Below are positions 27,273 to 43,603 of a DNA stretch of 64,000 nucleotides, piece by piece (position 1 is the first letter of the stretch; each line of letters opens with the position of its first letter). The notes under the pieces were generated by a model. The model was not told the origin of the DNA. It did not search any database and saw nothing but the letters and a program-made list of their open reading frames with translations. The DNA comes from Candidatus Jorgensenbacteria bacterium. GTDB taxonomy: Bacteria; Patescibacteriota; Minisyncoccia; UBA6257; GWB1-50-10. Position numbers and translations under genes: made by a program. The stretch spans positions 39,838-103,837 of the forward strand of contig DRGK01000017.1 of NCBI GenBank assembly GCA_011050075.1, read 5' to 3'.

Positions 27273-28368
27273 AAAACCGCGTAAGAATATACAAGTATCA
27301 CTCTTGCATTTTTTCAATGTTACGTTGATACCGTTACAGGAAAAGGTTAACTTTGCGCGCCATCTCTCAATAGGCATCAAAAGCGGCTTGTCTTTGCTCG
27401 ATACGTTGGATTTGATCAAACAGCAGACGTCGTCCAAGCGTTTTTCTGCGATGGTATCTCGTATCATGGAGGATATTAATAACGGCCAGTCATTAGCAGA
27501 TAGTCTGGAACGGTTTAATTATGTGTTCGGCCACCTGTTTATTAGCATGGTTCGCGTCGGAGAAGTTGGCGGGAACTTATCGGGAACGCTCGCGTATCTT
27601 TCTAACGAACTAAAAAAACAGAGAGAGCTTCATAATCGTGTGAAGTCGGCAATGATATACCCCGCGATTATTTTGATAGTGACGATAGGCATCACCGTGT
27701 TTCTCACTCTCTTTATTTTTCCTAAAATTCTCCCTATATTTCAAAGCTTGGGCGTACAGCTGCCGGCCAGCACACGGCTGATCATACAGACACTTTCATT
27801 TCTTGATAATTTTGGATTCTTGTTATTAGTCAGTATGGCGGTTTTTGCTATTGCGGTACGGGCGCTTCTATTTATACAGAAAGTTCGATACGGTATGCAC
27901 GCAGTGTCTTTGCGAATTCCATTTGTCTCGACGTTAATCATTAATGTAACCATTACGAGCTTTAGTCGTGTGCTCGCGGCGCTCCTCAAGAGTGGTATGA
28001 CACTACTGGACGCGCTCGTAGTTGTAAAAACAACTATCTCAAATTTGGTGTATCAGAAGCACGTCGAACAAATGATAGATGTTGTTCGACGTGGTGAAGA
28101 GATGACCAAGTACCTCAAGAAATATCCAAAACTATTCCCGCCGATGCTTGTCGGAATGATCAAGGTAGGTGAGGGAACCGGTAATTTAGAAGACAACCTG
28201 CTCTATCTTGCCGAGTACTACGAAAGCGAAGTTGATGAGACCGTCAATAACCTAACCACCATTCTTGAGCCGCTTCTCCTGCTCTTTATGGGTGTCATCG
28301 TTGGATTCATAGCGCTTTCCATTATCACACCGATTTATAAAGTAACGCAGGGACTAAACATTCGCTAA
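27265..28368 (+). CDS. pilC: Type IV pilus / type II secretion platform protein (PilC/GspF family)
   Basis: Two GspF repeats, 3 TM, ~367 aa; overlaps the pilB stop. Confidence 0.85.
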   Translation: MSKKPRKNIQVSLLHFFNVTLIPLQEKVNFARHLSIGIKSGLSLLDTLDLIKQQTSSKRFSAMVSRIMEDINNGQSLADSLERFNYVFGHLFISMVRVGEVGGNLSGTLAYLSNELKKQRELHNRVKSAMIYPAIILIVTIGITVFLTLFIFPKILPIFQSLGVQLPASTRLIIQTLSFLDNFGFLLLVSMAVFAIAVRALLFIQKVRYGMHAVSLRIPFVSTLIINVTITSFSRVLAALLKSGMTLLDALVVVKTTISNLVYQKHVEQMIDVVRRGEEMTKYLKKYPKLFPPMLVGMIKVGEGTGNLEDNLLYLAEYYESEVDETVNNLTTILEPLLLLFMGVIVGFIALSIITPIYKVTQGLNIR

Positions 28369-28853
28369 TGCTGTCCCTCAAACGTAAAACCTATAAACCC
28401 CTACCTACCGGCAGGCAGGTAAAATCTCAAAAAGGGTTCACTCTCCTTGAGATAATGATCGTTATTGGCCTCTTTGCTTTGCTCGTAGGCATTAGTATAC
28501 CGTTTGGACTTGATGTATACCGCAGCTACGTACTAATTTCCGAAACACGAAATATGGTTAGTTTCCTGCGACGCGCGGAGACGTTGTCTTTCACCAATAC
28601 CAGGAATGATTCGTATGGAGTTATGGTCATGAACGATCGATTCGTTGTGTTTCGTGGTGCGTCGTTTGCAACGCGTGATACTGCATTTGATGAAGAGTAT
28701 CTACGCTCGCCATTAGTAATCGTGTCGGGTATCGCGCATATTGTGTTTGCTGCGGTGACGGGAAGACCAGACATAATGGGTACCACAACATTCAGCAACG
28801 GCGTAAATGAACAAACAGTATTTATTAATGAACATGGCACACTTTTCTGGTGA
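28368..28853 (+). CDS. Prepilin-type (class III signal) pseudopilin with long basic leader
   Basis: …KPLPTGRQVKSQKG|FTLLEIMIVIGLFALLVG: Gly(-1), Phe(+1), Glu(+5) then a hydrophobic helix. Confidence 0.75.
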   Translation: MLSLKRKTYKPLPTGRQVKSQKGFTLLEIMIVIGLFALLVGISIPFGLDVYRSYVLISETRNMVSFLRRAETLSFTNTRNDSYGVMVMNDRFVVFRGASFATRDTAFDEEYLRSPLVIVSGIAHIVFAAVTGRPDIMGTTTFSNGVNEQTVFINEHGTLFW

Positions 28854-30249
28854 AAAGGGACAATCTCTCATAGAAATTCTTATTGCGTTCACACTCATCG
28901 TGCTTGGTATCGGGTCGGCGACGATACTGGTGTTTGGTGGACAAGGGCTGCTTATTGACAGGGGAAATACGGTACAAGCTCGTTCTCGTGCACAGGAAGG
29001 GTTACTTGCGGTAGAGCAGATGATACAGAACGATTGGGATTCGGTGTCAAATGGTACGTATGGCATTGTGTTCACCAACGGTACCTGGCAGCTATCCGGC
29101 GAAAGTACTATTGATGACCGATATACACGGTATGTCTCGGTAACCAGTATTGATGATAATCGGAAGGAGATTACAAGCAGTGTTGTATGGGAAACGGGTG
29201 GAGAAGGTTCCCGGATTGTTGAGTTTGTAACACTGGTTACCAACTGGCAAAATGTTGCACCGCCGTCACCGGATCCGGGAGATACGGGAGGTGGCGGAGT
29301 GAGCGGTAACTGGCAAAACCCGAGAACACTGGGTTCTGTTGATCTGGGTCCGGGAAATGAAGCATCAGACATTGATGTGATCAATAAGATCGTTTATATG
29401 TCTGCCACCGCGTCTTCTAAGAACAAGCCTGACTTCTTTATTATTGATGCAACCGATGGGGAAAATCCGGTAATGATATCTGAGCTTAATACCGGTCCGT
29501 CACTCAATTCCATTGATGCCAGCGGCAACTATGCATATGTGGCAAACGATGATGCGCAGGCACAGTTGCAGGTTATTGATGTGAGTGACATTAATAATCC
29601 TTCTATTACTGCGTCCCTTGAAGTTGCTGCTGACGCTGGAGGTACTGCTATATTCTTTACTAACGCAAAAATATATCTGGGCACCTACCAAAACGGTGCG
29701 GCTGAGTTTTATATCATTGATGTTTCGGACCCCTTAAACCCCAGCGTACTAGGCTCGTATGAAATGAACGGAACGGTGCGTGATATATATGTACGTAATA
29801 GTCGTGCATATATCACCGTTGAACGGGAAGTGGATACGGTAGCTATACTAAACGTTTCAACTCCTTCATCAATCGTATCGGAAGGAGGCGAATATATTGA
29901 TGAAGCATACGGTATCATGAGCATACGACCAGCACTCACCTTTATCGGCATTGATACTGATTTGGTTATTGCGGATACTGCGAATGCAGCCGCAGTGGCT
30001 ACAATTGGCTCTATCGGAATTGGCGGGAACGTCAATGATATTGCGGTGAGGGATTATCTCGTCTTTATTGCAACATCAAATAACAACAAAGAGTTCCAGA
30101 CAATTAACGTATCTGATCCAAGTAACCCATCAGTTCATTCTTCTTTTAATTTTTCGCAGGTTGGAACCGGTATTGATTACGAGGATAATATTGTCTACAT
30201 CTCAGTGAGAAGCAATGACGCTTTACGTATCATCACATCATCTCCATGA
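28807..30249 (+). CDS. Pilin-like protein fused to an LVIVD-repeat beta-propeller domain (candidate pilus tip/adhesin)
   Basis: N-terminus …GEKGQSLIEILIAFTLIVLG (prepilin-like); at least 4 LVIVD-type repeats (AYVANDDAQAQLQVIDVSDINNPS; IYLGTYQNGAAEFYIIDVSDPLNPS; AYITVEREVDTVAILNVSTPSS; VFIATSNNNKEFQTINVSDPSNPS). Confidence 0.65.
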   Translation: MNKQYLLMNMAHFSGEKGQSLIEILIAFTLIVLGIGSATILVFGGQGLLIDRGNTVQARSRAQEGLLAVEQMIQNDWDSVSNGTYGIVFTNGTWQLSGESTIDDRYTRYVSVTSIDDNRKEITSSVVWETGGEGSRIVEFVTLVTNWQNVAPPSPDPGDTGGGGVSGNWQNPRTLGSVDLGPGNEASDIDVINKIVYMSATASSKNKPDFFIIDATDGENPVMISELNTGPSLNSIDASGNYAYVANDDAQAQLQVIDVSDINNPSITASLEVAADAGGTAIFFTNAKIYLGTYQNGAAEFYIIDVSDPLNPSVLGSYEMNGTVRDIYVRNSRAYITVEREVDTVAILNVSTPSSIVSEGGEYIDEAYGIMSIRPALTFIGIDTDLVIADTANAAAVATIGSIGIGGNVNDIAVRDYLVFIATSNNNKEFQTINVSDPSNPSVHSSFNFSQVGTGIDYEDNIVYISVRSNDALRIITSSP

Positions 30250-30764
30250 AGACTCATAAACCCCTACCTACCGGCAAGCAAGTAAAATCTCAAAAAGGAT
30301 TCACGCTTATTGAAGCGCTTATCTATGCCACGCTATTAGGTATCTTTTTAGGCAGTGTCATTATTGTAGTTGGGAACATTCTTGCCTCTACCGATAGCAC
30401 ACTGGTGCGTAATGAGGTACTTGCCAATCAAGAGTTCGTTGAACAGAAACTTTCATGGCTTGCAGAACAGGCGACCGCGGTTACAGAACCACTCTCAGGA
30501 AGTTCCTCAACGCGAGTAGTTTTCACTGAACCGATATCCGGCACTAATCCGGCAATTTTTGAACTGCAGGACGGGAAAATTATGCTAACCCTCGGTTCCG
30601 GTGAAAGCGCTGCGCTGACCAATAATCGCGTGCGCGCGTCCGATTTCACCATTACCCACTACACATTAAACGGTGCATCACTGATACGAGTCTTATTTGG
30701 ACTTGAGCACATTGTCTACAGTCAAGTAACGAGCACGACCACACTCACCTTTATTATTCCGTAG
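30246..30764 (+). CDS. Prepilin-type pseudopilin with long basic leader (paralog of 28368..28853 at the N-terminus)
   Basis: MKTHKPLPTGKQVKSQKG|FTLIEALIYATLLGIF. Confidence 0.75.
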   Translation: MKTHKPLPTGKQVKSQKGFTLIEALIYATLLGIFLGSVIIVVGNILASTDSTLVRNEVLANQEFVEQKLSWLAEQATAVTEPLSGSSSTRVVFTEPISGTNPAIFELQDGKIMLTLGSGESAALTNNRVRASDFTITHYTLNGASLIRVLFGLEHIVYSQVTSTTTLTFIIP

Positions 30765-30767
30765 CAT

Positions 30768-31163
30768 ATGCAACACGATACATATCAACAGGGGTACGTA
30801 GCGGTTATGAGCGCTATTATCATTACCGCTATTCTGCTTGTCGTCGCATTGACCTTTAGTTCCAGTAGTTTTATGGGTAGGTTTGATACACAAGCAGTGG
30901 AATTCAAGATACTGACACGGAACTTAGCGCAGGGATGTATCGCGCATGCACAGTTAATGCTCGCGCTGGGAAGCTATACTGGCAATGAGGATGTGGTAGT
31001 GGGTGCATATACCTGCCGCGTCGTCTCCGTTACGCAGGGGAGCGGTATCATAACAGTGCAGGTAACTGCAATCATAGAGGACCACACTACAAATCTTGAA
31101 GCAGTCTTGGATAGCGCTACACTCGCTATTAATTCAGTTATAGAGATAAGTACGTTTGAGTAA
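30768..31163 (+). CDS. Membrane-anchored hypothetical protein in the pilus operon (PilX/minor-pilin-like?)
   Basis: N-terminal hydrophobic helix (VAVMSAIIITAILLVVAL) without a canonical G-F-x-x-x-E; operon position. Confidence 0.4.
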   Translation: MQHDTYQQGYVAVMSAIIITAILLVVALTFSSSSFMGRFDTQAVEFKILTRNLAQGCIAHAQLMLALGSYTGNEDVVVGAYTCRVVSVTQGSGIITVQVTAIIEDHTTNLEAVLDSATLAINSVIEISTFE

Positions 31164-31230
31164 ATATGGTATACTATCAATAGATAAGCTTTTTTAAGAA
31201 AAGGTCGTGTTTTTTTCAACATTATAGTAA

Positions 31231-31701
31231 ATGTCTAAAAATAGAGTGCAAAAAGTTAAAACAGAAGGTGGTTTTACATTAATTGAACTTTTGGTTGTTA
31301 TCGGCATCATCGCCATCCTTGCGGGTGTGGTGATTGTTGCCCTAAACCCGGCGCGACAGTTCGCGCAGGCACGCAACAGCCAACGTTGGTCAAATGTAAA
31401 TGCGATTTTGAATGCTGTAGGTCAGAACTTAGCTGATAACCGTGGGATATTCACCTGTGCTGCAGGAGTTATTCCAACGTCTGCGACAAATATGTCATCC
31501 TCTACATATGATATAGCGACATGTATTGTACCAACATACATGCCGACTATGCCATTTGACCCAAGTGATGCGAGCGCATACTACACCGATACGGCTGATT
31601 ACAACACGGTGTACAGTATTGTACGCAGTGCGACGACCAGCCGAATTACTGTCTCTTCACCATCAGCAGAATTAGAAGAAGCAATTGCAGTAACGAGATA
31701 G
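31231..31701 (+). CDS. pilA: Type IV major pilin (PilA-like) with prepilin leader
   Basis: MSKNRVQKVKTEG|GFTLIELLVVIGIIAILAGVVIV; own promoter and strong terminator; C-terminal Cys pair (FTCAAG…IATC). Confidence 0.8.
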   Translation: MSKNRVQKVKTEGGFTLIELLVVIGIIAILAGVVIVALNPARQFAQARNSQRWSNVNAILNAVGQNLADNRGIFTCAAGVIPTSATNMSSSTYDIATCIVPTYMPTMPFDPSDASAYYTDTADYNTVYSIVRSATTSRITVSSPSAELEEAIAVTR

Positions 31702-31721
31702 TCATTATACGTGTACTAACT

Positions 31722-31749
31722 AAAACCCCGGGATATGTCCCGGGGTTTT
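31722..31749 (+). terminator. Strong rho-independent terminator after the major pilin gene
   Basis: AAAACCCCGGGAtatgTCCCGGGGTTTT. Confidence 0.75.
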
Positions 31750-31815
31750 GACTGATTGAAAGTTTACTACATAACAAGCCATTTTTAGAGAAAATAGTGT
31801 GTTATAATTAGGATA

Positions 31816-32088
31816 ATGAAATTGCCGGAGTTTTTTAAACCAATTTTGTGGTCTTATGACTTTCCTGCCATAGATTCTGAGAAGAACAAGAAAGTTATTA
31901 TTGTGAATACGATAAATTACGGTGATTTAAAGCATTGGCATTGGTTGATACAACATTATGGGAAAGAGGCAGTTAAAGATGTTTTAGAACAGATCCCTTC
32001 AAGTGAAATAAGACCGCGGGCGCTTCGTCTCGCGACAACTATTTTCTCTATTAAAAACTTCAATTATGCACCTCGAGGTATTAACTGA
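31816..32088 (+). CDS. Small protein partner of the downstream nucleotidyltransferase (possible antitoxin-like component)
   Basis: 90 aa; overlaps the next ORF by 23 nt (coupled); AT-rich segment. Confidence 0.35.
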   Translation: MKLPEFFKPILWSYDFPAIDSEKNKKVIIVNTINYGDLKHWHWLIQHYGKEAVKDVLEQIPSSEIRPRALRLATTIFSIKNFNYAPRGIN

Positions 32089-32683
32089 GAAGGGCAAAGA
32101 AATTTTTTCCAGGCTTGATCGTTTTAATAAATTTTACCTCGCTGGTGGGACAGCATTAGCTTTGCAAATCGGACATAGGGCTTCAATTGACTTTGACTTA
32201 TTTTCCAAAAAAGAAATCCAGAAGGACTTTCTGTCTGAGATTGAGGAAGCTTTTCCTGGAGAGAACATATCAGTAGTTGTAAATAATCCCGATGAGGTAA
32301 CTGTTTTCGTAAGTGAAACGAAAGTTACTTTTTTGAAATATCCTTTCCCGTTGATATATGACCTTGTTAATTATGAAAGCGTAAACTTAGCAACCATTAA
32401 AGAAATAGCCGGAATCAAGGCCTATACAATTGGCAGAAGAGGATCTTTTAAAGATTACGTAGATTTATACTTTATTCTTTCTGAGAAGTATTTTTCTCTG
32501 AATGAGATTATTGACGTAGCTGAAAAGAAATACGGAAGTGATTTTAACTCACGACTTTTTCTTGAACAGCTTCTTTATTTGGAAGATATTACCGATACTG
32601 AAATTGTATTTTTAAAAGACAGCGTAGATAAAAAAGAACTAAGAAAATTTTTTGAGGAAGAAATAAAAAAGATTAAGATATAA
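32066..32683 (+). CDS. AbiEii/DUF1814-like nucleotidyltransferase (toxin-like NTase of a two-gene module)
   Basis: FYLAGGTALALQIGHRASIDFDLF matches the AbiEii N-terminal GGTAL…S/EDxDF core. Confidence 0.5.
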   Translation: MHLEVLTEKGKEIFSRLDRFNKFYLAGGTALALQIGHRASIDFDLFSKKEIQKDFLSEIEEAFPGENISVVVNNPDEVTVFVSETKVTFLKYPFPLIYDLVNYESVNLATIKEIAGIKAYTIGRRGSFKDYVDLYFILSEKYFSLNEIIDVAEKKYGSDFNSRLFLEQLLYLEDITDTEIVFLKDSVDKKELRKFFEEEIKKIKI

Positions 32684-32689
32684 AAATAA

Positions 32690-33610
32690 ATGACATTTGA
32701 ATCACCAAAATTTGAAGGAAAGGAACTTTCTCCTCTTAATAGGTGGGCCGAAAGAGGGGTCAAAGAAGCCTTGTCGGTCGTGAAAGAAAGATTTGAAAAT
32801 AAGGACAACAAAATTGAGAACCTTGATTTTCACAATACTCAGCACACGCAGAACGTGATACAAAGAACCGAGAAAATTCTCCTAGCAATGAGGGAGGGAA
32901 GTGCTCCAATTACCGAAAAGGACATTGCCCTTGGAAAGCTGTCATCGGCCCACCATGATGTTGTGCAGAGATGGGAGGAAAATAGAGTTAAGGACGGAAA
33001 TTTTGAGAAAGTAATGCGAAGACGCTTTATTGGTGATAACGAGAAAGCAAGCGCTCGCGCCGCGTTAGAGTTTATGGAAAAAGCAAATCAAGAAGCAGGA
33101 GAAGAGATTTTTAAAGATGAAGATATGGAAACGGTAAAAGAGGCGATTGTGGTTACTATCCCAGAATTTGATACGGAAAGGAAAACGGTTATCCAGCCGC
33201 ACCTCAATAAAGAATCGTCTTTTGTCGCAAGGGCTTTAGCTCTTGCAGATATTGGAGTCGCAGGCATGGAAGGATATAACGAGTTCGGTCAGGAAGGAGA
33301 CGCTCTTTTTAGAGAAGAGAATCTTGATATTCTCAGTGCTTTGGAAAACCCGGAAGAGCTTACATTAGAGCAGAAGGAGTATTTTAGAAACCGGATGCTT
33401 ATATGGAGCAAGTTCCAATCAGAGTTTGCCTCCGGCCGTAAGGCATTACTTGAAGAAGAACTAAGCGGTTTAACGTCTTCAGTTCAAGATGAAGTCAAAG
33501 ATTTATTTGATAAGTTTGATGAATCCATCGTGGGTGCGAAGGAAACCGCAGCTAAGCGAGAAGAGATGACCTTTGAAGAGTTAGCAAAGGACATGGGTTA
33601 TCGTCTTTAG
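32690..33610 (+). CDS. Hypothetical protein with putative HD-type metal-dependent phosphohydrolase motifs
   Basis: H…H (DFHNTQHTQN) and HD (SSAHHDVVQ) spaced as in HD domains; acidic C-terminus; AT-rich. Confidence 0.35.
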   Translation: MTFESPKFEGKELSPLNRWAERGVKEALSVVKERFENKDNKIENLDFHNTQHTQNVIQRTEKILLAMREGSAPITEKDIALGKLSSAHHDVVQRWEENRVKDGNFEKVMRRRFIGDNEKASARAALEFMEKANQEAGEEIFKDEDMETVKEAIVVTIPEFDTERKTVIQPHLNKESSFVARALALADIGVAGMEGYNEFGQEGDALFREENLDILSALENPEELTLEQKEYFRNRMLIWSKFQSEFASGRKALLEEELSGLTSSVQDEVKDLFDKFDESIVGAKETAAKREEMTFEELAKDMGYRL

Positions 33611-33623
33611 AAATCTCTAATTT

Positions 33624-35117
33624 ATGACTAAGTTTAAAACATACTATCTTTACTTCACCGTCTTTGTAACGGGTGCAGTAGTATTGATAATTGAAATCCT
33701 GGGAACAAGAATTCTCGCACCATTTTATGGTACAACAATTTTTGTGTGGTCTTCACTTCTCAGTGTCGCGCTCGGTTTTCTCGCGCTCGGCTATTGGGTG
33801 GGTGGTATTTGGGTTGATAGGAAGCCAAGCTTCTCCAATTTTTATGGGATCGTTTTTCTTGCTGCCACCACACTAGTACTGGCTATTAAACTGAACCGAG
33901 TTGTTCTCGTTTTCTCAGACCAATTCGGTTTGAAGTTTGGTCCACTCATTGCTTCGGTTTTACTTTTTGCGATACCACTTTTCTTATTGGGCATGATAAC
34001 GCCTTTTGCTATACGTTTGCGTACTAAATTAATAGAAAATGTGGGAACACGATCTGGGGGTATTTTTGCTATAGCGACCATTGGATCATTGATAGGAGCT
34101 CTACTCTCGGGTTTCTTCCTCATACCCATTTTATCTATAACGAATATTTTTTATATCACCACCTTACTTCTTGTAGTAATATCTGTTCTTGGTCTTTTAA
34201 TTTCGGGAAAAGAACAAATTAGTGGGAACCGTTATAGATGTCTCTTACTTTTCTTGATTTTTCTTGCTGTACTCTCAATTCCTTTGTTTAATATTGAAGC
34301 ACATAAGAATTCAAGAATTCTTTTTCAAAAACAAGGTTTCTACGGTGACATAAAAGTAGTTGAAATCGGAGAATCACGTTGTCTTGTAGTTAATGGGATG
34401 ACACAGACCTGTGTAAAAATAGAAACATATGACGGAGGTCTGTCATACATAGAAGAAATAGGGAGGATTTTAGCACTACGGCCGCAAGACAAAGACATCT
34501 TGCTTTTAGGACTTGGTGGAGGAAGTATAATGTCTTTTTTTTCAGAAATTCAGGAAATAGACATAATTGAAATAGCCCCCAAAATTATACATATCGCAGA
34601 AAGATTTTTTAACTTTCATCCAGACTTAAATCAGCGCATTATAATAGATGATGCCCGCAGTTTTTTGAGGAGGACAGACAAAAAATACGACCTTATTATT
34701 GCCGACGTGTTTTCGGCTACTACAATCCCTCTCCATCTTTCCACAAAAGAGTATTTTGAACTTTTAAAGAGTCACTTACATTCGGAGGGTCTTGTTCTTT
34801 TTAATTTTATTGGTCGTACTGGGCCAGAGGATCGGTATACAACCTCCTTTGTACGGACGCTACGTTCCGTTTTTCCCTCGGTGATAATTACAAGTCCAGT
34901 ACCAGGACTACAAAGTATGGTTCTCCATGCCTCGGTTGATGAGTCATACGCTCCTCGTATAGGTGAGGAGTTTTACGAAGTACCGGTAGCTGACGATATG
35001 GGAATACTATTGACTGATAATAAAAACCCCCTGGAATTGCTCGCCTTACCTAACCTTGAAGTGTTGCGAAGGAATTTAAAGTCATCCGGTGGTTTTGATT
35101 TGTTTTTCACCAACTGA
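33624..35117 (+). CDS. Membrane-anchored spermidine synthase-like (polyamine aminopropyltransferase fold) protein
   Basis: ~7 TM N-terminal domain fused to LLLGLGGGSIM…IDIIEIAPKII…IIADVF (SpeE/AdoMet-MTase-like). Confidence 0.6.
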   Translation: MTKFKTYYLYFTVFVTGAVVLIIEILGTRILAPFYGTTIFVWSSLLSVALGFLALGYWVGGIWVDRKPSFSNFYGIVFLAATTLVLAIKLNRVVLVFSDQFGLKFGPLIASVLLFAIPLFLLGMITPFAIRLRTKLIENVGTRSGGIFAIATIGSLIGALLSGFFLIPILSITNIFYITTLLLVVISVLGLLISGKEQISGNRYRCLLLFLIFLAVLSIPLFNIEAHKNSRILFQKQGFYGDIKVVEIGESRCLVVNGMTQTCVKIETYDGGLSYIEEIGRILALRPQDKDILLLGLGGGSIMSFFSEIQEIDIIEIAPKIIHIAERFFNFHPDLNQRIIIDDARSFLRRTDKKYDLIIADVFSATTIPLHLSTKEYFELLKSHLHSEGLVLFNFIGRTGPEDRYTTSFVRTLRSVFPSVIITSPVPGLQSMVLHASVDESYAPRIGEEFYEVPVADDMGILLTDNKNPLELLALPNLEVLRRNLKSSGGFDLFFTN

Positions 35118-35131
35118 AACACTCATTATCT

Positions 35132-36547
35132 ATGCCCCGCTTTTTAAATAGAAATTCCTTAGTTTTCATAGCACTTGCTACACTTGCAACTTTGCTTGTC
35201 TTTACCGTTTTGCCCTCTATCACAAATGCAGGCGGTACGTTTACCACCAACCAAGACAGTTTTAGGTTTAAAGGCGATACAGGCGGAGAAACGGCAACAG
35301 ACTGGATTGATGCCGAAGACACGAATATTACTCAAGCAAAAAACAGCAACTTTCGCATACGTATTCACTTTCATGAATCAGGTAATGCAGCCGGCGATGT
35401 GACACCTCTTTTAGAGTACAAAACTGCCTCTGGTAATGCATGTGCTAATACGACAGGGTGGACAACTATTACAACTGCAACGACAAATGCATTTGCTCTT
35501 GTCGATTCGTCACAGTTTGTTGAAGCAGTTGCAACTACTGAACAGTTATCAAGCTTTGGCGGAATAGGTTTTGTTGCTGGAGAACTCTTGGACCAAACTA
35601 ATCCCGGTACAATCATTACCATCGGTGCAAAAAACGAAAGTGAGTATGTATGGAACATGAAAGCAACGGACAATGCGGTCGATGGCACGGCGTACATATT
35701 TCGGGTGAGTAATAACGGCACCAACTTAACAAACTATAATGCCTGCCCGCAGGTAACAGTTCCTGCGGGCAATGCACCGCCCGTTGTTTCAAACGTTGCG
35801 TTGGATGGAGGAACAGCAATCACGCTCACAGAAAACACAACTAAAGCTGTTAGCGCTACGGCAGATGTATCAGATCCGAACGGCGCTGACGATATTATTT
35901 CAGCGACCTCAACCATCTACCGTTCCGGTGTCGGTGCGGGATGTACCGCTGATGATGAGAATTGCTACAAAATAGCGAGCTGCACGTTTTCTGGTGCGAC
36001 GAGTACCGTGACCTGCACGGCGAATATACAGTTCTTTGCCGACCCGACCGATGCAAGCTCTACTGCTTATTCTGCTCAGGATTGGCAGGCAGAAATTACG
36101 GTAACCGACTCTGCCAGTGCAACCGGTGCATCGAGCACTCTATCCGGCGTAGAGCTCAATACACTCTGGGCTATCGATATAACCGCAACTATTAACTACG
36201 GGGCTGTTAGTCCAACCGCAGATACAGGGAGTACAAATCAAAGCGTTACGGTTACCAACACAGGTAATGCGGCGATCGATATAGAGGCATCGGGGACTGA
36301 TATAACGCTTGGCGGTAGTACGATAGGAGTTGCCAATCAAAAGTATGCGACCTCCACCTTTACGTACTCGAGCTGTACAATCTGTACGGCACTTTCCTCA
36401 ACCCCCGCTGCATATGAGGTTGATTTACTCAAGCCGACCTCGGCCACGCCGGTTACAGATTTAATCTACTGGGGACTTGCGGTGCCAAACGGCACTGCGC
36501 AAGGGGTGCACAGCGGAACCAATACCTTTACCGCAATAGGCGATTAG
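35132..36547 (+). CDS. Secreted Thr/Ala-rich surface protein, paralog A
   Basis: Signal peptide; conserved Cys-containing module (RSGVGAGCTADDENCY); C-terminal VTVTNTGN… CARDB/DUF11-like module; ends …GTNTFTAIGD. Confidence 0.55.
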   Translation: MPRFLNRNSLVFIALATLATLLVFTVLPSITNAGGTFTTNQDSFRFKGDTGGETATDWIDAEDTNITQAKNSNFRIRIHFHESGNAAGDVTPLLEYKTASGNACANTTGWTTITTATTNAFALVDSSQFVEAVATTEQLSSFGGIGFVAGELLDQTNPGTIITIGAKNESEYVWNMKATDNAVDGTAYIFRVSNNGTNLTNYNACPQVTVPAGNAPPVVSNVALDGGTAITLTENTTKAVSATADVSDPNGADDIISATSTIYRSGVGAGCTADDENCYKIASCTFSGATSTVTCTANIQFFADPTDASSTAYSAQDWQAEITVTDSASATGASSTLSGVELNTLWAIDITATINYGAVSPTADTGSTNQSVTVTNTGNAAIDIEASGTDITLGGSTIGVANQKYATSTFTYSSCTICTALSSTPAAYEVDLLKPTSATPVTDLIYWGLAVPNGTAQGVHSGTNTFTAIGD

Positions 36548-36593
36548 TACAGGGTTGAATATGATATAATATACATAAAGAGGATGTAATAAT

Positions 36594-37541
36594 ATGAGAA
36601 GTACACTTTCTCTTCTTTTAAAAGTTTATATTTTCGCGATTCCCCTCGCGCTGCTACTGGTCGGGGGACTTTTAATGCTCACAAACACTATTTTAGCAGG
36701 CACTTCAAGCACATCAGTAACCGTTCAAGGCGCTGTCCCCACAGTTACCGTTGTTAACATTTCTCCCGATCCAATTATCCCGACCGAAAATGCAACGACG
36801 AGCATTACCATTACTGCAACAATTTCCGATTCAAACGGATGCGATGATGTATTCACAAGCGGTACTATCGCGGTCGCACTCTATCGGTCAGGTGTTGGTG
36901 CCAGTTGCTCGGTCGATGACAACAACTGTTATCAGAACATCACTTGGGCGGAGGTTGGCAATACCTGCGGGGGCGGTGCAGATACAAGCGGGGATATGGT
37001 TGCCACGGCAACGATATGGTACTTTACCGAAGCAACCGATGCGAGTTCAACATACTCAGGGGAAACATGGCAGGCTCAGGTCAAGGCAGTTGATGAGTCT
37101 AATGCAAGCTCTACCGCTACCGACGCGTCGCCCCCTGAGCTCAATTCGGTATATGCTCTCACTGTTGACAGTGCCATTGCGTACGGTTCTATGTCAGCAG
37201 ATGCTACGAGTACCTTGTCTGAGATTGGACAGTCAACGACGACGGTAACCAACACGGGAAATTACAAGATTGATACCGAGGTATCGGGTACCGATATGAC
37301 GGGTTCAGGTACCATTATTGCAAGCAAACAAAAATATGCTACCTCATTGTTAGGATATGAATCACTTACATACACACTCTCAACGTCTGCTACTGCAAGA
37401 GATTTAAATATTGTGAAAGCGACCTCTTCTTCTACGCCGTCAACGCAAGATACCTACTGGGGTATTTCTATCCCTAGCGCTCAGGCGGAAGGAGGTTATA
37501 GCGGAACCAACACATTTACCGCTATCTATTCAGCCGATTAG
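36594..37541 (+). CDS. Secreted Thr/Ser-rich surface protein, paralog B of 35132..36547
   Basis: Signal peptide; same modules (RSGVGASCSVDDNNCY; TTVTNTGNYKID…; ends …GTNTFTAIYSAD). Confidence 0.55.
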   Translation: MRSTLSLLLKVYIFAIPLALLLVGGLLMLTNTILAGTSSTSVTVQGAVPTVTVVNISPDPIIPTENATTSITITATISDSNGCDDVFTSGTIAVALYRSGVGASCSVDDNNCYQNITWAEVGNTCGGGADTSGDMVATATIWYFTEATDASSTYSGETWQAQVKAVDESNASSTATDASPPELNSVYALTVDSAIAYGSMSADATSTLSEIGQSTTTVTNTGNYKIDTEVSGTDMTGSGTIIASKQKYATSLLGYESLTYTLSTSATARDLNIVKATSSSTPSTQDTYWGISIPSAQAEGGYSGTNTFTAIYSAD

Positions 37542-37576
37542 TGCAGAGTCTACCAATATAGTAGCTAACGCGGCAA

Positions 37577-38608
37577 TTGTCCGCGCTTTGTTTTCTTAGT
37601 ATGATTACAGATATGCATATACGTTCTCTAACGTTGATTGTCATTACGTTGTCCTTACTTGCACCATCGGTAGTGGGTGCGTTCGGGGTTTCACCTCCAT
37701 TTATCACAGTACATAAACTTGTGGCTGGCTCGCGTTATGAAACAACAATTACCCTCGTTCAGGGACAGCCGGATGTTGATTTGGAAGTTAAGGCAGTGTT
37801 TGATGTACCTGAAAAGATTAGAGAATGGTTCAGTGTTGATAAGGGATATCAGTTTATAATCCCCGCTGGCGTTCAGCAGTTCCCGATACAAGTTGTTATT
37901 CAGGTTCCGAAAGATACCGGTCTTGGTATTTATAACGGGCACTTACGGATTAACACTGTTCCACAACGGAAAGAAGGTGAACAGATCGCAATCTCCGTTG
38001 GCGCACGCATCGATATCAACATTACGGTAGGGGATGATATTGTCGTTGATTTTTCAGTTAAGAAAATTGACATCTCTGACATTAGAGAAAACGAGTCACC
38101 TCAGATCGTTGTCACTATAGAGAATACGGGGAATGTTCCCATTACACCGGACAGAGCAACATTTGACCTGCTTGATAAGTACGGGGAAGTACGGCTCGGC
38201 TTTGCACAAACGGAGGACTTGCCAGAGACGCCAGCCTTTGAAACTAAAACTTTTGTCGTAGCATTTCCCATAGACATTAAGCTCGGCGTGGGAGAGTACT
38301 GGGGTGAAGCACGATTATATAGAGGTGGGACAATAATTGGGGATGTAAAAACTATCTTCAATGTAACTCCAAGACCAAATTATATACTCTTTATTGGTAT
38401 TGGCTTACTTATTATTGGAGCCGGTGTTTCTATATTTATATTTAAAAAGAAAGCAAGTCGTAAGCCAACGAGTCGTAAGAGAACAGTAACAAAAAAGAAA
38501 GCTGTAAGGAAAACTGCCCGTAAACCAAAAAAACAAGTTAGTAGTAAGAAAAAATTGAATAAGAAAAAGACAGTAAAAACAAAGCAAAAGAAGAGCATTG
38601 GCTCATGA
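37577..38608 (+). CDS. Secreted CARDB-like surface protein with C-terminal TM anchor and poly-lysine cytoplasmic tail
   Basis: Signal peptide; …VVTIENTGNVPITPD…; TM (ILFIGIGLLIIGAGVSIFIF), then KKKASRKPTSRKRTVTKKKAVRK…. Confidence 0.5.
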   Translation: MSALCFLSMITDMHIRSLTLIVITLSLLAPSVVGAFGVSPPFITVHKLVAGSRYETTITLVQGQPDVDLEVKAVFDVPEKIREWFSVDKGYQFIIPAGVQQFPIQVVIQVPKDTGLGIYNGHLRINTVPQRKEGEQIAISVGARIDINITVGDDIVVDFSVKKIDISDIRENESPQIVVTIENTGNVPITPDRATFDLLDKYGEVRLGFAQTEDLPETPAFETKTFVVAFPIDIKLGVGEYWGEARLYRGGTIIGDVKTIFNVTPRPNYILFIGIGLLIIGAGVSIFIFKKKASRKPTSRKRTVTKKKAVRKTARKPKKQVSSKKKLNKKKTVKTKQKKSIGS

Positions 38609-40149
38609 AATGGTACGCGTTTACGGCAGTTTGTTTCGCAGTAATCGGACTCATGATAACGGTGGGCATTACAAATGCTGGAACAGCTTCCGTAACGGTA
38701 ACGGTAACGCTTGCCGAGTGCTCTGACAGTATTGACAACGACGGTGATTTTTTAACCGACTATCCCAATGACACGGAGTGCGATTCGGGTACCGATAACA
38801 GTGAAAACATTGCCGGCACCGAGACGCATGCAACATCTACTATTGAAACAAGCGGGGGCAGTTTTTCTTTTGATAATGCTGATAGTTTAGCCGTTGATTT
38901 TACGTTTCAGAACGGGTTTCATGGTAGTTCAGTACGGTTATTCGTGAACTCGTATGCAACTAGCTCTTTTGAATCGAGCAAGCCAGCACCTTCTGGGAAG
39001 AGCTTCGTTGGTAAAACATACGACATCATTCTGTACGAGAACGCATCACCGAATAATTCTATTGCAACAACTTCCAAAGCTATTACCATCGTGATGCAAT
39101 ATTTGGATAGTGATGTAAGCAGTATCGATGAAAGCAACGTTCTGCCGTATCGTTGGAGTACAAGCACATCGGCGTGGGCGATAATATCTGGCAGCTCACT
39201 TGATACATCAAACAATAAAGTAACTTTTTCTACCACCGATTTCAGTTCATTTAGCTTGCTCGGCACAAACCTTTCTGAATTCCAATGCAGTGACGGTATT
39301 GACAATGATGGGGATGGTAAGATTGACTATCCATCCGACCCTGGGTGTTCATCAACAACCGATGATAATGAAACAGACCCGCAGCAGGCACCAGGTGGCG
39401 GTGGAGGCGGCGGTGCTACGATAACAGCACCGCCTCAGGTTACATTCAGCGGGTTAGCATATCCCGGCAGTAAAGTAACAATACTGAAAGATGCTCAAGT
39501 AGCTGCGGTAACTATAGCCGGTCCCGATGCGAAATTTAAAGCGGGCCTGTCCAAACTCTCAACCGGAAACTACAATTTCGGCATTTGGGCTGCTGATACA
39601 TCCGGTCGAAGATCGGTTACACATACATTTGCACTGAGCGTTAAGCCCGGCTCTTCTGTTACGGTAAGCGGCATTTTCCTGCCTCCTACCATATCAATAG
39701 ACAAAAGTGAGGTAAGGAAAGGTGATGTATTGGGTATTGCGGGGCAGAGCGCTCCTGAGGCTAACGTTTCTCTTATTGTTCATTCACATTCTATTGTGAA
39801 GAAGGTGACCGTTGATAAGAGCGGGGCGTGGTTTTATAAACTGGACACCACCGAGCTTGAGTATGGTAAGCACTCCACACAGGCGAAGTCAGAAACGGAA
39901 AACGATATCAGTTCACTCTCGCAACTACTGCTTTTCAAAGTTGGTACAAAAAGCAAGAAAGCCATTCCCTTAGCAGTAGTAGAACTTAAGGGTGACGTGA
40001 ACAGCGATGAGAAAGTTAATTTGGTTGATTTCAGTATCGCAGCGTATTGGTATAAAAGACCGTCCCCCCCATCCGCCGTTGATTTAAACAACGATGGGAA
40101 AGTTGATTTAGTGGACTTCAGTATTATGGCATACTGGTGGACGGGATAG
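38605..40149 (+). CDS. Secreted protein with Ca-binding Asp-rich Cys-flanked motifs and a C-terminal dockerin domain
   Basis: Signal peptide; CSDSIDNDGDFLTDYPNDTEC and CSDGIDNDGDGKIDYPSDPGC; C-terminal GDVNSDEKVNLVDFSIAAYWY…DLNNDGKVDLVDFSIMAYWW, a dockerin type-I-like duplicated Ca-loop/helix. Confidence 0.65.
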   Translation: MKWYAFTAVCFAVIGLMITVGITNAGTASVTVTVTLAECSDSIDNDGDFLTDYPNDTECDSGTDNSENIAGTETHATSTIETSGGSFSFDNADSLAVDFTFQNGFHGSSVRLFVNSYATSSFESSKPAPSGKSFVGKTYDIILYENASPNNSIATTSKAITIVMQYLDSDVSSIDESNVLPYRWSTSTSAWAIISGSSLDTSNNKVTFSTTDFSSFSLLGTNLSEFQCSDGIDNDGDGKIDYPSDPGCSSTTDDNETDPQQAPGGGGGGGATITAPPQVTFSGLAYPGSKVTILKDAQVAAVTIAGPDAKFKAGLSKLSTGNYNFGIWAADTSGRRSVTHTFALSVKPGSSVTVSGIFLPPTISIDKSEVRKGDVLGIAGQSAPEANVSLIVHSHSIVKKVTVDKSGAWFYKLDTTELEYGKHSTQAKSETENDISSLSQLLLFKVGTKSKKAIPLAVVELKGDVNSDEKVNLVDFSIAAYWYKRPSPPSAVDLNNDGKVDLVDFSIMAYWWTG

Positions 40150-40168
40150 TGAAAACTAAACTGCAATT

Positions 40169-41068
40169 ATGAAACAATTCTTGATCAGTATTTGTCTCTT
40201 ATTCTTCGCATTCGGCATAAGTATGGTGAGTGCCGTTGAGCTATCTTTTGATTCTCCCGTATATAAAATAGGACTGGGGAAATTTATTGCTATTGATGTC
40301 TTAGTAGATTTCCAAGGTGAGGCAATCAATACATTAGAAGGAAGAATACACGTTCCCGAATCTTTTGATATTGTAAACACAAACACTGCGGGATCGGTGA
40401 TAAATCTCTGGATTCAGGAACCGAAAATAGAAGTTAATAGTGTCTATTTCTCCGGCATCATACCGGGTGGATTTGGTAGTCAGCTTAGTGACGGTACGGG
40501 CATCGGTAACGAGTTGGAGATATTAACTATTACATTAGAAGCCAAGAGAGAAGATGCAAACAGCATTACGGCAGGGGACACCAAAGCACTTTTGAACGAT
40601 GGATTTGGAACGGAAACCGATATAGCTACAAAGCCATGGTTTTATGAAATTTCTGAAAGCTATACCGGGGGAGGCGTTGAAGCAGTAATAGATAGCGAGC
40701 CGCCCGGGAATTTTAAGCCGGAAGTTACCAGAAGTGAAACCGTGTTTTCAGGGCAATACTTTGTAGTTTTCAGTACACAAGATAAAGAATCGGGAATGAA
40801 ACGCTATGAGGTTGCAGAACAGCGCGGAAGAAAAACTGAGAACTACTCAGTTTTGGACTGGAAAATTACAAAAAGCCCCTATATTTTGGAAGACCAGACA
40901 TTAAGGAGCTACATCTACGTAAAAGCAATTGACAATACGGGGAATGAGATAATTGCAGTAGTTCCGCCGCATAACCTATTAGTACGGTATTGGTATGTAC
41001 TCATTTTGTTTATAATAATAGTAGGAATTAGTTTCGCTTATACTAAAACAAAGCGAAAGAATTCATGA
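40169..41068 (+). CDS. Membrane-anchored cohesin-like domain protein 1
   Basis: Signal peptide; beta-rich domain alignable to type-I cohesin (…GRIHVPESFDIVNTNTAGSVINLWIQEP…); C-terminal TM (YVLILFIIIVGISFAY) plus KTKRKNS. Confidence 0.5.
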   Translation: MKQFLISICLLFFAFGISMVSAVELSFDSPVYKIGLGKFIAIDVLVDFQGEAINTLEGRIHVPESFDIVNTNTAGSVINLWIQEPKIEVNSVYFSGIIPGGFGSQLSDGTGIGNELEILTITLEAKREDANSITAGDTKALLNDGFGTETDIATKPWFYEISESYTGGGVEAVIDSEPPGNFKPEVTRSETVFSGQYFVVFSTQDKESGMKRYEVAEQRGRKTENYSVLDWKITKSPYILEDQTLRSYIYVKAIDNTGNEIIAVVPPHNLLVRYWYVLILFIIIVGISFAYTKTKRKNS

Positions 41069-42147
41069 AGAAAAAGACATTACTCTTAAGTACGATACTG
41101 ATTTTATTTGGCGTGGTTACAACTGCCCACGGGGCTAACTTGTATTTCTCTCCATCGGGAGGAAGTTTCTATAAAGGCGAGAATTTTACCATTGGTGTTT
41201 TCGTAAATACAGACAGGGCCACTAATGCCATCTCCGGCGTCTTAACGTTTCCCACTAGATACGTTGAGGCGGTGAGCGTGCGCAAGAGTAATTCCATAGT
41301 CAATCTTTGGGTTCAGGAACCCTCATTTTCCAATATAGGTGATTTCGGCAATATCAGGTTTGAAGGTGTTATTCTCAACCCAGGCTTTACTGGCACCAGA
41401 GGAAAAATACTTGATGTTGTTTTTCGAGTAAAGAACAATGGTTTTATGAATTTGGAATTCGTTGAGGTCGCTATTCTAGCTAACGATGGGTTAGGAACAA
41501 ATATAGCAGTTCCGGACGGTGAAGCTAGCTTTGTACTAAAATCAAAACCGGTATACTCACCGGAGTCTGTAGAAATAACTGGAGGAAAACAAGAATTATC
41601 TGCAACCTCAACGCCACCGATTATAATAGTCAGGGAAGTAAGACCAGAACCACCATCAGGTATACTTGGATTATGGGAAGTTTTACCGACCTGGATAAAA
41701 ACCATCACTTTGGCTCTTGTTGGTCTGGCAACAATTCTACTCGGACTTGTTATTATCAGTCTCGGTATAATTGTTTTGATTTGGCTTTGGAGTTATATAT
41801 GGCGTAGGAGGAATATAATTGAGGGTTGGCTTGTATCATTTCCGAGAGCTGTAAATCATTTTACACGCAGAGTCCTTGTGTTTATACGCGGAGCAGAAAA
41901 GGAAATAAAAGGAGATTTGAAATATAGCATTCCACGAGTGAAAGACATAGTTAAGGAAGCAGGGCGCGAGCCACCGTTAAAGCAGTTAGTGAAAGATTAC
42001 TTTAGCTCAATACGTAAAATCATAAAACGCTTTTTCACGAAAAATGAATCGTGGCAAGAGAGTGTACTAGATGACATATCAAATTCTAAAACACCTGATC
42101 CTAAAAGGTCTGAAGATATAATACAGGAAGAGGAAGAACAGCTATGA
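41065..42147 (+). CDS. Membrane-anchored cohesin-like domain protein 2 with conserved cytoplasmic tail
   Basis: …GENFTIGVFVNTDRATNAISGVLTFPTRYVEAVSV… / …GKILDVVFRVKNNGFMNLEFVEVAIL… resemble CipA cohesin strands; TM; ~100-aa basic tail. Confidence 0.5.
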   Translation: MKKKTLLLSTILILFGVVTTAHGANLYFSPSGGSFYKGENFTIGVFVNTDRATNAISGVLTFPTRYVEAVSVRKSNSIVNLWVQEPSFSNIGDFGNIRFEGVILNPGFTGTRGKILDVVFRVKNNGFMNLEFVEVAILANDGLGTNIAVPDGEASFVLKSKPVYSPESVEITGGKQELSATSTPPIIIVREVRPEPPSGILGLWEVLPTWIKTITLALVGLATILLGLVIISLGIIVLIWLWSYIWRRRNIIEGWLVSFPRAVNHFTRRVLVFIRGAEKEIKGDLKYSIPRVKDIVKEAGREPPLKQLVKDYFSSIRKIIKRFFTKNESWQESVLDDISNSKTPDPKRSEDIIQEEEEQL

Positions 42148-42461
42148 TAAAGGCGATATTTTTCTTTATTGTGGGAGTGGCAGCAGTAATTGTGTTACTG
42201 CTCGGTGTTGGTTTAGTGGTAGTTGTCTTGGTCTGGTTTTGGAACTACGGACGATACGAAGGTGGAAAACTTCTTAGGAAAGTCCTTGTCTCCGCAAGGG
42301 CAACGGAGGAAGAAATCGAGAGTGATGTGCAGTATAGCGTCCGGAGAGTAAAGAAAACCCTTGAAAAAACCAAGAAGAATCTATCATTGAAAGAAATGGT
42401 GAATGCTTACTGGAAATCGGTTGAAAAAATTGTAGAGCGCTTTCTTACGAAAAACAAGTAA
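42144..42461 (+). CDS. Small membrane protein, paralog of the TM plus cytoplasmic tail of 41065..42147
   Basis: WFWNYGRYEGGKLLRKVLVSARATEEEIESDVQYSVRRVKKTLEK… parallels WLWSYIWRRRNIIEGWLVSFPRAVNHFTRRVLVFIRGAEKEIKGDLKYSIPRVKDIVKE…. Confidence 0.5.
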   Translation: MIKAIFFFIVGVAAVIVLLLGVGLVVVVLVWFWNYGRYEGGKLLRKVLVSARATEEEIESDVQYSVRRVKKTLEKTKKNLSLKEMVNAYWKSVEKIVERFLTKNK

Positions 42462-42472
42462 CGGGGTGTCTA

Positions 42473-42506
42473 AAAAGATTAATGACATACGTGTCGTTAA
42501 TCTTTT
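42473..42506. terminator. Bidirectional terminator hairpin between convergent genes
   Basis: AAAAGATTAAtgacatacgtgtcgTTAATCTTTT. Confidence 0.55.
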
Positions 42507-43603
42507 AGGCTTTCAATAATAGCAACTTCTAGGGGGATAATAGGGAACTGGCTATAGCGCATCTGACTATACGCAGTAATGAGCGCTCTTAAGAGTTCAA
42601 GGTGTTTTTCTGTAAAAAGCTTTGCGTGATCACTAAGCTTTTTTAAGTGTTCGTTTATAAGTTCTTTTTCAAATTCTTTCTTCATGCTCGGACTAAAAGA
42701 AAGCACTGCGGTACGTCGGAGGTATTGAATAACATCCTTAGTAAACTGAACAAGGTTGTATCCCTTGTCATTAACTTCAGCTATATGCTTGAGTGCTTTA
42801 TCAATATCGCTAGTTAATAAATATCCGGAAAACTCAGAAAGAGCACTGAATCCAATTTTACCAACCATTTCTTCTACTTCATCAATAGTAATATCTTTAT
42901 CGCCCCCCGCGGTGAGCTGGTCTAAGAGCGACTCTGCATCACGAAAACTTCCCTCTGCTGCTGCTGCAATGAGCTCCAACGCTTCACTTGAGATTTTCAT
43001 TTTCTCCTTCTTGACGATTGATCTGAGTTTGATAATCAACTGCTGCAGCGATACACGTTTAAACTGAAACTGTTGGGTACGAGAGAGGATCGTGACAGGT
43101 ATCTTTTCGATTTCTGTGGTGGCGAGAATGAGAATAATATACTTCGGCGGCTCCTCCAGTGTTTTTAAAAGCGCATTGAAGGCATCCTTGGTCATCATGT
43201 GTACTTCATCAATAATGAATACCTTATAGCGCGTGTTAGACGGTGAAACACGGATGTTTTCCTTCAAACTGCGTATTTCATCAATACCACGATTCGATGC
43301 AGCATCAATTTCAATAACATTCAGATTACGCCCATCACTAATTTCCTGACATACCGAGCATTTGTTACACGGCTCTCCTTTCTTACTGAACACAGCATCT
43401 TTCTGTCGGGTAAGACAGTTTGCCACCTTTGCAATGAGCCGTGCGGTTGTTGTCTTTCCAGTTCCGCGCGGACCGGAGAAAAGATATGCATGTGCAATCT
43501 TGTCTTGTCGTACCGCTTCTTGAAGAATGCGGACAATGAGGTCTTGTCCGAGTATGTCGCTAAATGTTGACGGACGATATTTACGATATAGTGCAAGTGC
43601 CAT
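42497..43603 (-). CDS. dnaX: DNA polymerase III subunit gamma/tau (short form)
   Basis: MALALYRKYRPSTFSDILGQ…GPRGTGKTT…; Zn module CNKCSVCQ. Confidence 0.85.
   Translation of the reverse strand: MALALYRKYRPSTFSDILGQDLIVRILQEAVRQDKIAHAYLFSGPRGTGKTTTARLIAKVANCLTRQKDAVFSKKGEPCNKCSVCQEISDGRNLNVIEIDAASNRGIDEIRSLKENIRVSPSNTRYKVFIIDEVHMMTKDAFNALLKTLEEPPKYIILILATTEIEKIPVTILSRTQQFQFKRVSLQQLIIKLRSIVKKEKMKISSEALELIAAAAEGSFRDAESLLDQLTAGGDKDITIDEVEEMVGKIGFSALSEFSGYLLTSDIDKALKHIAEVNDKGYNLVQFTKDVIQYLRRTAVLSFSPSMKKEFEKELINEHLKKLSDHAKLFTEKHLELLRALITAYSQMRYSQFPIIPLEVAIIESLKD

Follow-up and report, generated by a model that had tools for sequence, protein, structure and literature searches.

The 64,000-nucleotide stretch of contig DRGK01000017.1 from Candidatus Jorgensenbacteria (hereafter the window) carries a gene for a predicted secreted, adhesin-like protein of 514 residues that ends in a dockerin, and directly behind it two genes, here named CohA and CohB, for predicted membrane proteins with one cohesin-type domain each. 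It is considered probable that these genes encode a non-cellulosomal cohesin-dockerin surface tether, which would hold the adhesin-like protein on the cell membrane through a contact deduced from sequence. This reading is built on the identities of the modules, the cohesin fold of CohB, the homology between CohA and CohB, a near-invariant gene order and the predicted topology of the proteins. The likely role of such a tether is surface display together with attachment to a partner cell or a substrate, and not polysaccharide breakdown. The dockerin gene and its C-terminal module are laid out as follows.

38605..40149, forward strand: gene for the 514-residue dockerin-bearing, adhesin-like, predicted secreted protein (open reading frame, ORF; Pfam Dockerin_1 and Big_6; AlphaFold2 model with a predicted local distance difference test score, pLDDT, of 84.2)
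39988..40146, forward strand: dockerin module, residues 462-514 of 514 (stop codon at 40147-40149)
39994..40059, forward strand: dockerin segment 1, DVNSDEKVNLVDFSIAAYWYKR, residues 464-485, a 22-residue loop-helix unit
40060..40080, forward strand: Pro-rich linker PSPPSAV of 7 residues, joining segments 1 and 2
40081..40146, forward strand: dockerin segment 2, DLNNDGKVDLVDFSIMAYWWTG, residues 493-514, the second 22-residue unit and the C-terminus of the protein

The original prediction, made from the letters of this DNA, had placed a duplicated dockerin segment at 39940..40149, at the C-terminus of a secreted Asp-rich protein. The repeat that it quoted is present, and its range encloses the module together with the 16 preceding residues. 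The final 53 residues of the protein read KGDVNSDEKVNLVDFSIAAYWYKRPSPPSAVDLNNDGKVDLVDFSIMAYWWTG and are followed by the stop codon, and the two halves of the module are identical at 14/22 residues and 46/66 nucleotides. In the Pfam scan that had been proposed as a check, Dockerin_1 (PF00404) matched residues 462-508 with 29.2 bits (E 1.1e-6), above the gathering score of 22.9, and the weak matches to EF-hand models, EF-hand_7 and EF-hand_1 among them, reached 11.8-14.6 bits. When the module was compared with PDB sequences by phmmer, the only meaningful matches were cellulosomal dockerins, with 2y3n_B as the best (E 0.0026) and CelS (1daq/2mte) and 4fl4_A as further examples. Of the 1132 six-frame ORFs in the window, a family hidden Markov model (HMM) of the module matched one, the 514-residue ORF.

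The calcium ligands of the dockerin F-hand occupy loop positions 1, 3, 5, 9 and 12. These are D-N-D-N-D in segment 1 and D-N-D-D-D in segment 2, and in an alignment of 62 homologues Asp or Asn is kept at each of them in 57-62 sequences (92-100%); the original prediction had proposed such a check for positions 1, 3, 5 and 12. Calcium binding by the module is suggested by its ligand pattern. In the AlphaFold2 model, the dockerin forms two helices (residues 473-481 and 502-513) in a block with pLDDT of about 93. Dockerins typically comprise three helices and a linker of 9-18 residues, a layout that is usual and not strictly defining; here the linker has 7 residues, too few to accommodate the usual middle helix, and the model has two helices, with longer linkers present in some homologues. 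The end of the protein coincides with position 22 of segment 2, and the terminal Y-W-T-G is nearly invariant. Positions 10/11, which determine specificity and are Ser-Thr in the classical type I dockerins of C. thermocellum, are Leu-Val/Ile here, and positions 17-20 read Ala-Tyr-Trp/Tyr-Tyr/Trp. The halves are identical at positions 10-15 and 17-18, and they differ in a manner conserved across the family at positions 9, 16 and 19-22, segment 1 ending in W-Y-K-R and segment 2 in Y-W-T-G. By its residue pattern, the C-terminal block of 53 residues is a genuine but compact dockerin with a predicted hydrophobic or aromatic surface, and profile, calcium positions and modelled helices together bear out a duplicated dockerin segment at the end of a predicted secreted acidic protein. 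The description of that protein as Asp-rich holds in a modest sense, with 8.0% Asp and a net charge of -24.

The module is widespread. A phmmer search with its 60-residue form against 1.84 billion representatives returned 3305 cluster representatives at E <= 0.001, of which 654 fell at E <= 1e-10. Among the top 150 matches listed, those at about 60-80% identity nearly all occur once per protein, at the C-terminus of chains of 200-650 residues, the exceptions being one protein of 1031 residues and several shorter entries resembling fragments; this near-exclusive position points to one dedicated dockerin family. A second class of matches (P0361-P0364, P0370, P0373 and others) carries 5-14 weaker dockerin-like stretches per protein at 32-53% identity, on proteins mostly of 800-1100 residues, two of them of about 2300-2560; these have dockerin or F-hand repeats in tandem, an architecture of another kind. 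The database protein P0121, listed as 100% identical, differs from the window at 39940..40146 by KNKK against KSKK and by LNDDGK against LNNDGK; with 98% identity over the 60-residue module, the window holds a close variant of the deposited sequence and not the same one.

For the whole dockerin protein more than 1200 homologues were retrieved, and PF00404 is precomputed in about 85 of the 120 listed. In a scan of one genome per species, at least 563 genomes encode a relative, and by record title the relatives are almost all Patescibacteria (Jorgensen-, Taylor-, Sung-, Portnoy-, Lipton-, Colwell-, Wolfe-, Kaiser- and Torokbacteria, Paceibacterota, Minisyncoccota). The domain identification itself is not new, as family members already bear the NCBI labels 'dockerin type I repeat-containing protein' or 'cohesin domain-containing protein'. 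Non-cellulosomal cohesin-dockerin pairs are, moreover, an established category. The original prediction had called the module unexpected in a small low-GC genome without cellulases; given the number of relatives and the naming by NCBI, it is not unexpected for this lineage, and the GC content of the window is 43%, which is not low.

Immediately downstream of the dockerin gene stand the genes of the putative partners, with the following features.

40169..41068, forward strand: CohA, 299 residues, with signal peptide, cohesin-like domain, second conserved domain, C-terminal transmembrane (TM) helix and short basic tail
40241..40648, forward strand: cohesin-like domain of CohA, about residues 25-160
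40967..41053, forward strand: TM helix of CohA, residues 267-295, followed by the short basic tail ...YTKTKRKNS
41065..42147, forward strand: CohB, 360 residues, with signal peptide, cohesin, disordered linker, TM segment and helical tail
41134..41541, forward strand: cohesin domain of CohB, residues 24-159
41680..41805, forward strand: TM segment of CohB, residues 206-247, followed by ...WRRRN
41806..42144, forward strand: conserved helical cytoplasmic tail of CohB, about 110 residues
42144..42461, forward strand: ORF of 105 residues with TM helix and helical tail and without cohesin, a paralogue of the CohB region that spans TM and tail (BLASTP 35% identity, E 4e-21)

The AlphaFold2 model of CohB comprises a beta-sandwich at residues 24-159 (pLDDT > 90), a disordered linker, a TM helix and long helices, and the sandwich has the jelly-roll fold of cohesins. 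CohA and CohB are paralogous in their N-terminal 150 residues or so (BLASTP E 4e-9), and an hhalign comparison of the two family profiles gave a probability of 99.9% (E 1.9e-36). Pfam Cohesin (PF00963) matches 17/59 members of the CohB family and 7/51 of the CohA family at E <= 0.01, with best E values of 7.2e-7 and 5.8e-6, respectively, and some members are named 'cohesin domain-containing protein' by NCBI. Direct searches of CohA and CohB against PDB sequences returned noise only, and NCBIfam gave no match for either protein or for the proteins encoded upstream of the dockerin gene; cohesin identity is therefore drawn from the fold comparison and from the Pfam matches of relatives. In both proteins the TM segment is followed by basic residues, which predicts the cohesin outside the cell and the tail inside, and CohA and CohB are accordingly predicted to be single-cohesin type I membrane proteins. 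The original prediction had allowed for a generic EF-hand outside any cohesin context; with two cohesin-fold proteins encoded immediately downstream, this is not what the locus holds.

The arrangement is kept across the lineage. Dockerin and cohesin module HMMs were applied to 83 distinct loci, and gene order was counted in the 67 with at least 3 kb of downstream sequence. Exactly one dockerin was found in each of the 83 loci; two cohesin modules lie directly downstream on the same strand in 65/67, one module in 2/67 and none in 0/67. In related loci, CohA starts 60-600 nucleotides (nt) and CohB 900-1600 nt past the dockerin, and gene calls on three independent contigs agree with the order dockerin-CohA-CohB. 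The same module HMMs found in the window exactly one dockerin and two cohesin modules, adjacent to each other. CohA starts 19 nt past the stop of the dockerin gene, the CohA end and the CohB start share 4 nt, and on the other side the end of the gene for a 343-residue WxLIP-like membrane protein overlaps the dockerin-gene start by 4 nt; overlaps of this size and gaps of at most 19 nt fit a single operon. With an iterated family HMM, the WxLIP-like protein was found in 59/85 related loci, mostly abutting the dockerin-gene start. Judged by sequence, the conserved core is thus made up of the WxLIP-like protein, the dockerin protein, CohA and CohB. Pairwise comparison within 74 complete triplets gave mean identities of 63% (dockerin), 51% (CohB) and 35% (CohA). 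A choice of partner from correlations of pairwise identity (0.32 and 0.40 between the dockerin and the cohesins, 0.45 between CohA and CohB) was tried and set aside, as these values reflect shared phylogeny. Several public records of metagenome-assembled genomes (MAGs) with the cassette bear the title 'uncultured Gammaproteobacteria' or 'Candidatus Saccharibacteria' (L011, L024, L042, L066, L074, L077 and many Saccharibacteria loci); these titles look like placeholder or mis-assigned taxonomy.

In the proposed mechanism, the dockerin carrier would be exported by means of its N-terminal signal sequence, and the dockerin would fold around two calcium ions. The calcium-loaded module would then plug into the cohesin ectodomain of CohB and/or CohA, the choice between the two being itself a matter of deduction, and these membrane-fixed proteins would hold the adhesin-like protein non-covalently on the Parcubacteria-type (Candidatus Jorgensenbacteria) cell, with the WxLIP-like, presumably wall-associated membrane protein of the same cassette alongside. 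The symmetry of the dockerin halves, taken together with their family-conserved differences, would allow the dockerin to bind one or the other cohesin alternatively, or both simultaneously. A bolder proposal, which we regard as improbable, is that one dockerin with two conserved and differing faces binds CohA and CohB at once, forming a heterotrimeric anchor within a Patescibacteria-specific envelope machine that couples the adhesin to the cytoplasmic tail of CohB; if true, Parcubacteria-type episymbionts would have in it a core device for host attachment or signalling, and more than a simple tether.

Several observations weigh against a tether of this kind. The CohA and CohB of the window have no Pfam match on their own, to Cohesin or any other model, and the CohB-family profile matches no PDB cohesin by sequence. 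On the dockerin side, the 7-residue linker comes without the usual middle helix, and Leu-Val/Ile in place of Ser-Thr at positions 10/11 indicates that the contact chemistry is not canonical. In addition, the N-terminal hydrophobic segment of the dockerin protein could be an uncleaved anchor, and not a signal peptide that is removed.

Other explanations of the locus must be weighed against the tether. The module could be a calcium-binding module of dockerin fold that does not engage the neighbouring cohesins, and that instead binds host-cell glycans or another ligand, or stabilises its own protein, the cohesins having a separate role. Wang and others described a dockerin-domain protein that is essential in a Saccharibacterium and speculated that it targets host glycans (Wang et al., 2023; PMC10633639). 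The gene of this protein, SEML1_0315, has no adjacent cohesin genes, so that dockerins of Patescibacteria can exist without a neighbouring partner, and the hydrophobic and aromatic residues at the recognition positions, which are not the classical Ser-Thr, would also agree with a ligand other than a cohesin. However, the order dockerin-CohA-CohB is kept in 65/67 loci over deep divergence, a linkage that would be difficult to account for if the genes had no tie in function, and the dockerin exceeds both cohesins in conservation (63%, against 51% for CohB and 35% for CohA), as expected of an interface module; this explanation is accordingly considered unlikely. Lower still is the chance given to docking in trans, whereby the dockerin protein would settle on the cohesins of another cell, a sibling or a host, and bring about aggregation or episymbiotic attachment. 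Both partners are predicted to be extracellular and a type IV pilus cluster is located some 7 kb upstream, as would suit such a role, but both partners are encoded by one operon of one genome, which makes assembly in cis the simpler expectation, although cis and trans are not distinguished by the data.

That the locus encodes a minimal true cellulosome, organising polysaccharide-degrading enzymes, would be suggested by the presence of cohesin and dockerin, the defining modules of cellulosomes, and by the cellulosomal proteins among the best sequence and fold matches. The carrier, however, has no detected catalytic domain or carbohydrate-binding module (CBM), the window and the related loci contain one dockerin each, the anchors have one cohesin apiece and there is thus no scaffoldin, and no glycoside hydrolase was found by Pfam among the 26 neighbouring ORFs; a cellulosome is very improbable. 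As for a chance EF-hand-like repeat without dockerin identity, the weak matches to EF-hand_7 and EF-hand_1 are what would speak for it, and the Dockerin_1 score is twice theirs and above threshold, the calcium positions are conserved and the module recurs in 3305 cluster representatives at E <= 0.001, so that it was rejected as having a practically negligible probability.

The closest known counterparts of the proposed tether are non-cellulosomal pairs, represented by the Archaeoglobus fulgidus cohesin 2xdh and by the cohesins of Clostridium perfringens glycoside hydrolase/toxin complexes (2vo8, 2w1n, 2jh2 and 2o4e); the cohesins 2xdh and 2vo8 are among the best structural matches of CohB. In C. 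perfringens, according to the PDB descriptions, the modules reside on secreted glycoside hydrolases, whereas here the carrier is a non-enzymatic protein with a stalk of immunoglobulin (Ig)-like domains. Relative to both species, the present system is a fixed, lineage-wide cassette of one dockerin and two single-cohesin TM anchors, with a minimal dockerin and a linked WxLIP-like gene. The cellulosomal type I dockerins (C. thermocellum CelS, 1daq/2mte; Pseudobacteroides Cel48, 2y3n_B) share the duplicated 22-residue F-hand with the pattern D-x-N-x-D-x-x-x-N/D-x-x-D, and the cohesins of these systems are represented by 1ohz, 1aoh and 2vn5. The near-symmetric halves seen here resemble the feature that underlies the dual binding mode named in the title of 2vn5. 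The differences from type I dockerins are the 7-residue linker, the lack of a modelled middle helix, the C-terminal YWTG and Leu-Val/Ile at positions 10/11, and, in contrast to cellulosomal systems, no enzyme, CBM or scaffoldin was found among the ORFs scanned in the 64-kb window. The Southlakia protein SEML1_0315 was also considered as a member of the same system and rejected, having 927 residues and no neighbouring cohesins.

The WxL surface-protein clusters of Firmicutes, with their WxLIP (DUF916-DUF3324-TM) proteins, were described by Hassan and others (Hassan et al., 2023; PMC10599100). The cassette shares with them a set of secreted surface-protein genes that point in one direction, a WxLIP-like one among them, and the same layout of ectodomain, TM segment and basic tail. 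In contrast to those clusters, no WxL domain was detected in the window by Pfam, even at E <= 10, and the partner module is a cohesin-dockerin pair. No description of the cassette was found in literature on dockerin or cohesin together with the CPR (candidate phyla radiation), Patescibacteria, Parcubacteria or Saccharibacteria, nor was cohesin-dockerin biology in Parcubacteria-type CPR bacteria described in the literature searched.

To our knowledge, CPR bacteria of the Parcubacteria type have not been cultivated, and little is known of how they keep hold of their partners. The four-gene cassette, relatives of which are encoded in at least 563 species genomes, represents a concrete and testable candidate for their surface architecture, particularly as the dockerin (53 residues) and the cohesin (about 140 residues) are small, easily expressed and open to standard cohesin-dockerin assays. 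For cellulosome research, it offers a very compact dockerin with a predicted hydrophobic or aromatic recognition surface together with TM-anchored single cohesins, which might be put to use as an orthogonal pair in designer assemblies. The cassette also carries a warning: counts of cohesins and dockerins in biogas MAGs have been read as evidence of cellulolysis (PMC7038595), and such counts in metagenomes should not be read in that way.

Outside the dockerin, the carrier protein is composed of the following parts.

38605..38682, forward strand: N-terminal hydrophobic signal sequence, residues 1-26, ending ...GITNA|G (hydrophobic segment at residues 1-28; helix at residues 2-23 in the model)
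38719..38781, forward strand: acidic Cys-closed loop 1, CSDSIDNDGDFLTDYPNDTEC, residues 39-59 (located by motif; low pLDDT)
38818..39270, forward strand: beta-sandwich, residues 72-222, ZU5-like by fold (pLDDT > 90; Foldseek)
39286..39348, forward strand: acidic Cys-closed loop 2, CSDGIDNDGDGKIDYPSDPGC, residues 228-248 (located by motif)
39394..39414, forward strand: linker of seven Gly after Cys loop 2
39436..39945, forward strand: two tandem Ig-like domains, residues 278-358 and 367-447 (Big_6, AlphaFold2 model, Foldseek)

The signal peptide is putatively cleaved at TNA|G. The best single-domain Foldseek match of the beta-sandwich at residues 72-222 is the ZU5 domain of ankyrin (3f59, ZU5-ANK), with a TM-score of 0.65-0.67, and the sandwich is, on its modelled fold, a candidate ligand-binding head. 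Further fold matches of this sandwich are UNC5b and the FIIND of NLRP1; a fold like that of the eukaryotic ZU5 domain is a puzzling feature of a CPR surface protein. The Ig-like region scores 26.0 bits with Pfam Big_6, just below the cut-off of 27.6, and Foldseek matched the pair to the Ig tandems of Bap, SiiE and an ice-binding adhesin. The Ig-Ig-dockerin arrangement is the conserved core of the family, and the Ig stalk region is kept in all homologues.

The original prediction had also pointed to two Cys-flanked DNDGDG motifs resembling thrombospondin type-3 or EF-hand-like calcium sites. The acidic loops of calcium-binding type are real, but no Pfam model, TSP3 or EF-hand, matches residues 39-59 or 228-248 at E <= 1. 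The NCBIfam model NF033662 (acid_disulf_rpt, 'acidic double-disulfide repeat') matches two stretches on the loops with a total of 37.2 bits, short of the cut-off of 41; only two Cys are present in each loop. The motif was found in 47/120 homologues, which marks the loops as accessory. Pfam, the AlphaFold2 model and Foldseek detected no catalytic or carbohydrate-binding domain in the carrier. With its Cys loops, ZU5-like head and two-Ig stalk, the modelled protein looks like an adhesin, and its adhesive role is suggested by this resemblance.

The upstream member of the cassette is encoded as follows.

37577..38608, forward strand: 343-residue WxLIP-like membrane protein with signal peptide, beta-rich ectodomain, TM segment at residues 267-291 and Lys-rich cytoplasmic tail

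By analogy with the WxLIP family, its ectodomain may comprise two Ig-like domains. The protein of the window has no significant Pfam match, PF06030 (WxLIP_PGBD) included; three members of its family score above the PF06030 gathering score of 27.3, at 30.9-33.3 bits, and a C-terminal LysM was found in three family members. Between this gene and the preceding one, a GC-rich hairpin with a T-run behind it (CGCGGCAATTGTCCGCG CTTTGTTTTC) occupies 37569..37585 on the forward strand. This element and the listed TTG start of the WxLIP-like gene overlap, which suggests that the true start is a downstream ATG, and the element could mark off the conserved core of four genes from the variable genes upstream. 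A scan for promoters and terminators over 31500..43000 was no better than shuffled sequence (20 promoter-like sites against 22.6 expected, 12 terminator-like sites against 9.7), so that the boundaries of the transcription unit are argued from gene spacing only. At the other end of the cassette, the start of the 105-residue ORF overlaps the CohB stop by 4 nt.

Further upstream, two paralogous genes encode secreted proteins of 471 residues (35132..36547, forward strand) and 315 residues (36594..37541, forward strand) with 40% identity (E 2e-47). Both share with the dockerin protein an N-terminal signal with an ending like ...TNA|G, and they have in common the C-terminus YWG[LI]..P...G.[YH]SGTNTFTAI, a W-x-L-like motif near the WxLIP-like gene. 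A WxL domain, which YWG[LI] had brought to mind, was rejected for both paralogues, as Pfam gave no match at E <= 10. This pair is present in 4/85 related loci only. The scan of the 26 neighbouring ORFs against Pfam that gave no glycoside hydrolase likewise gave no CBM. The type IV pilus or type II secretion system (T2SS)-like cluster lies at 25992..31701 on the forward strand and comprises a T2SSE ATPase, a T2SSF platform protein, an LVIVD-repeat beta-propeller protein and two N-methyl pilin-like proteins. Between this cluster and the surface-protein cassette, a gene for an AbiEii-type nucleotidyltransferase toxin is found at 32066..32683 on the forward strand (Pfam E 6.8e-14).

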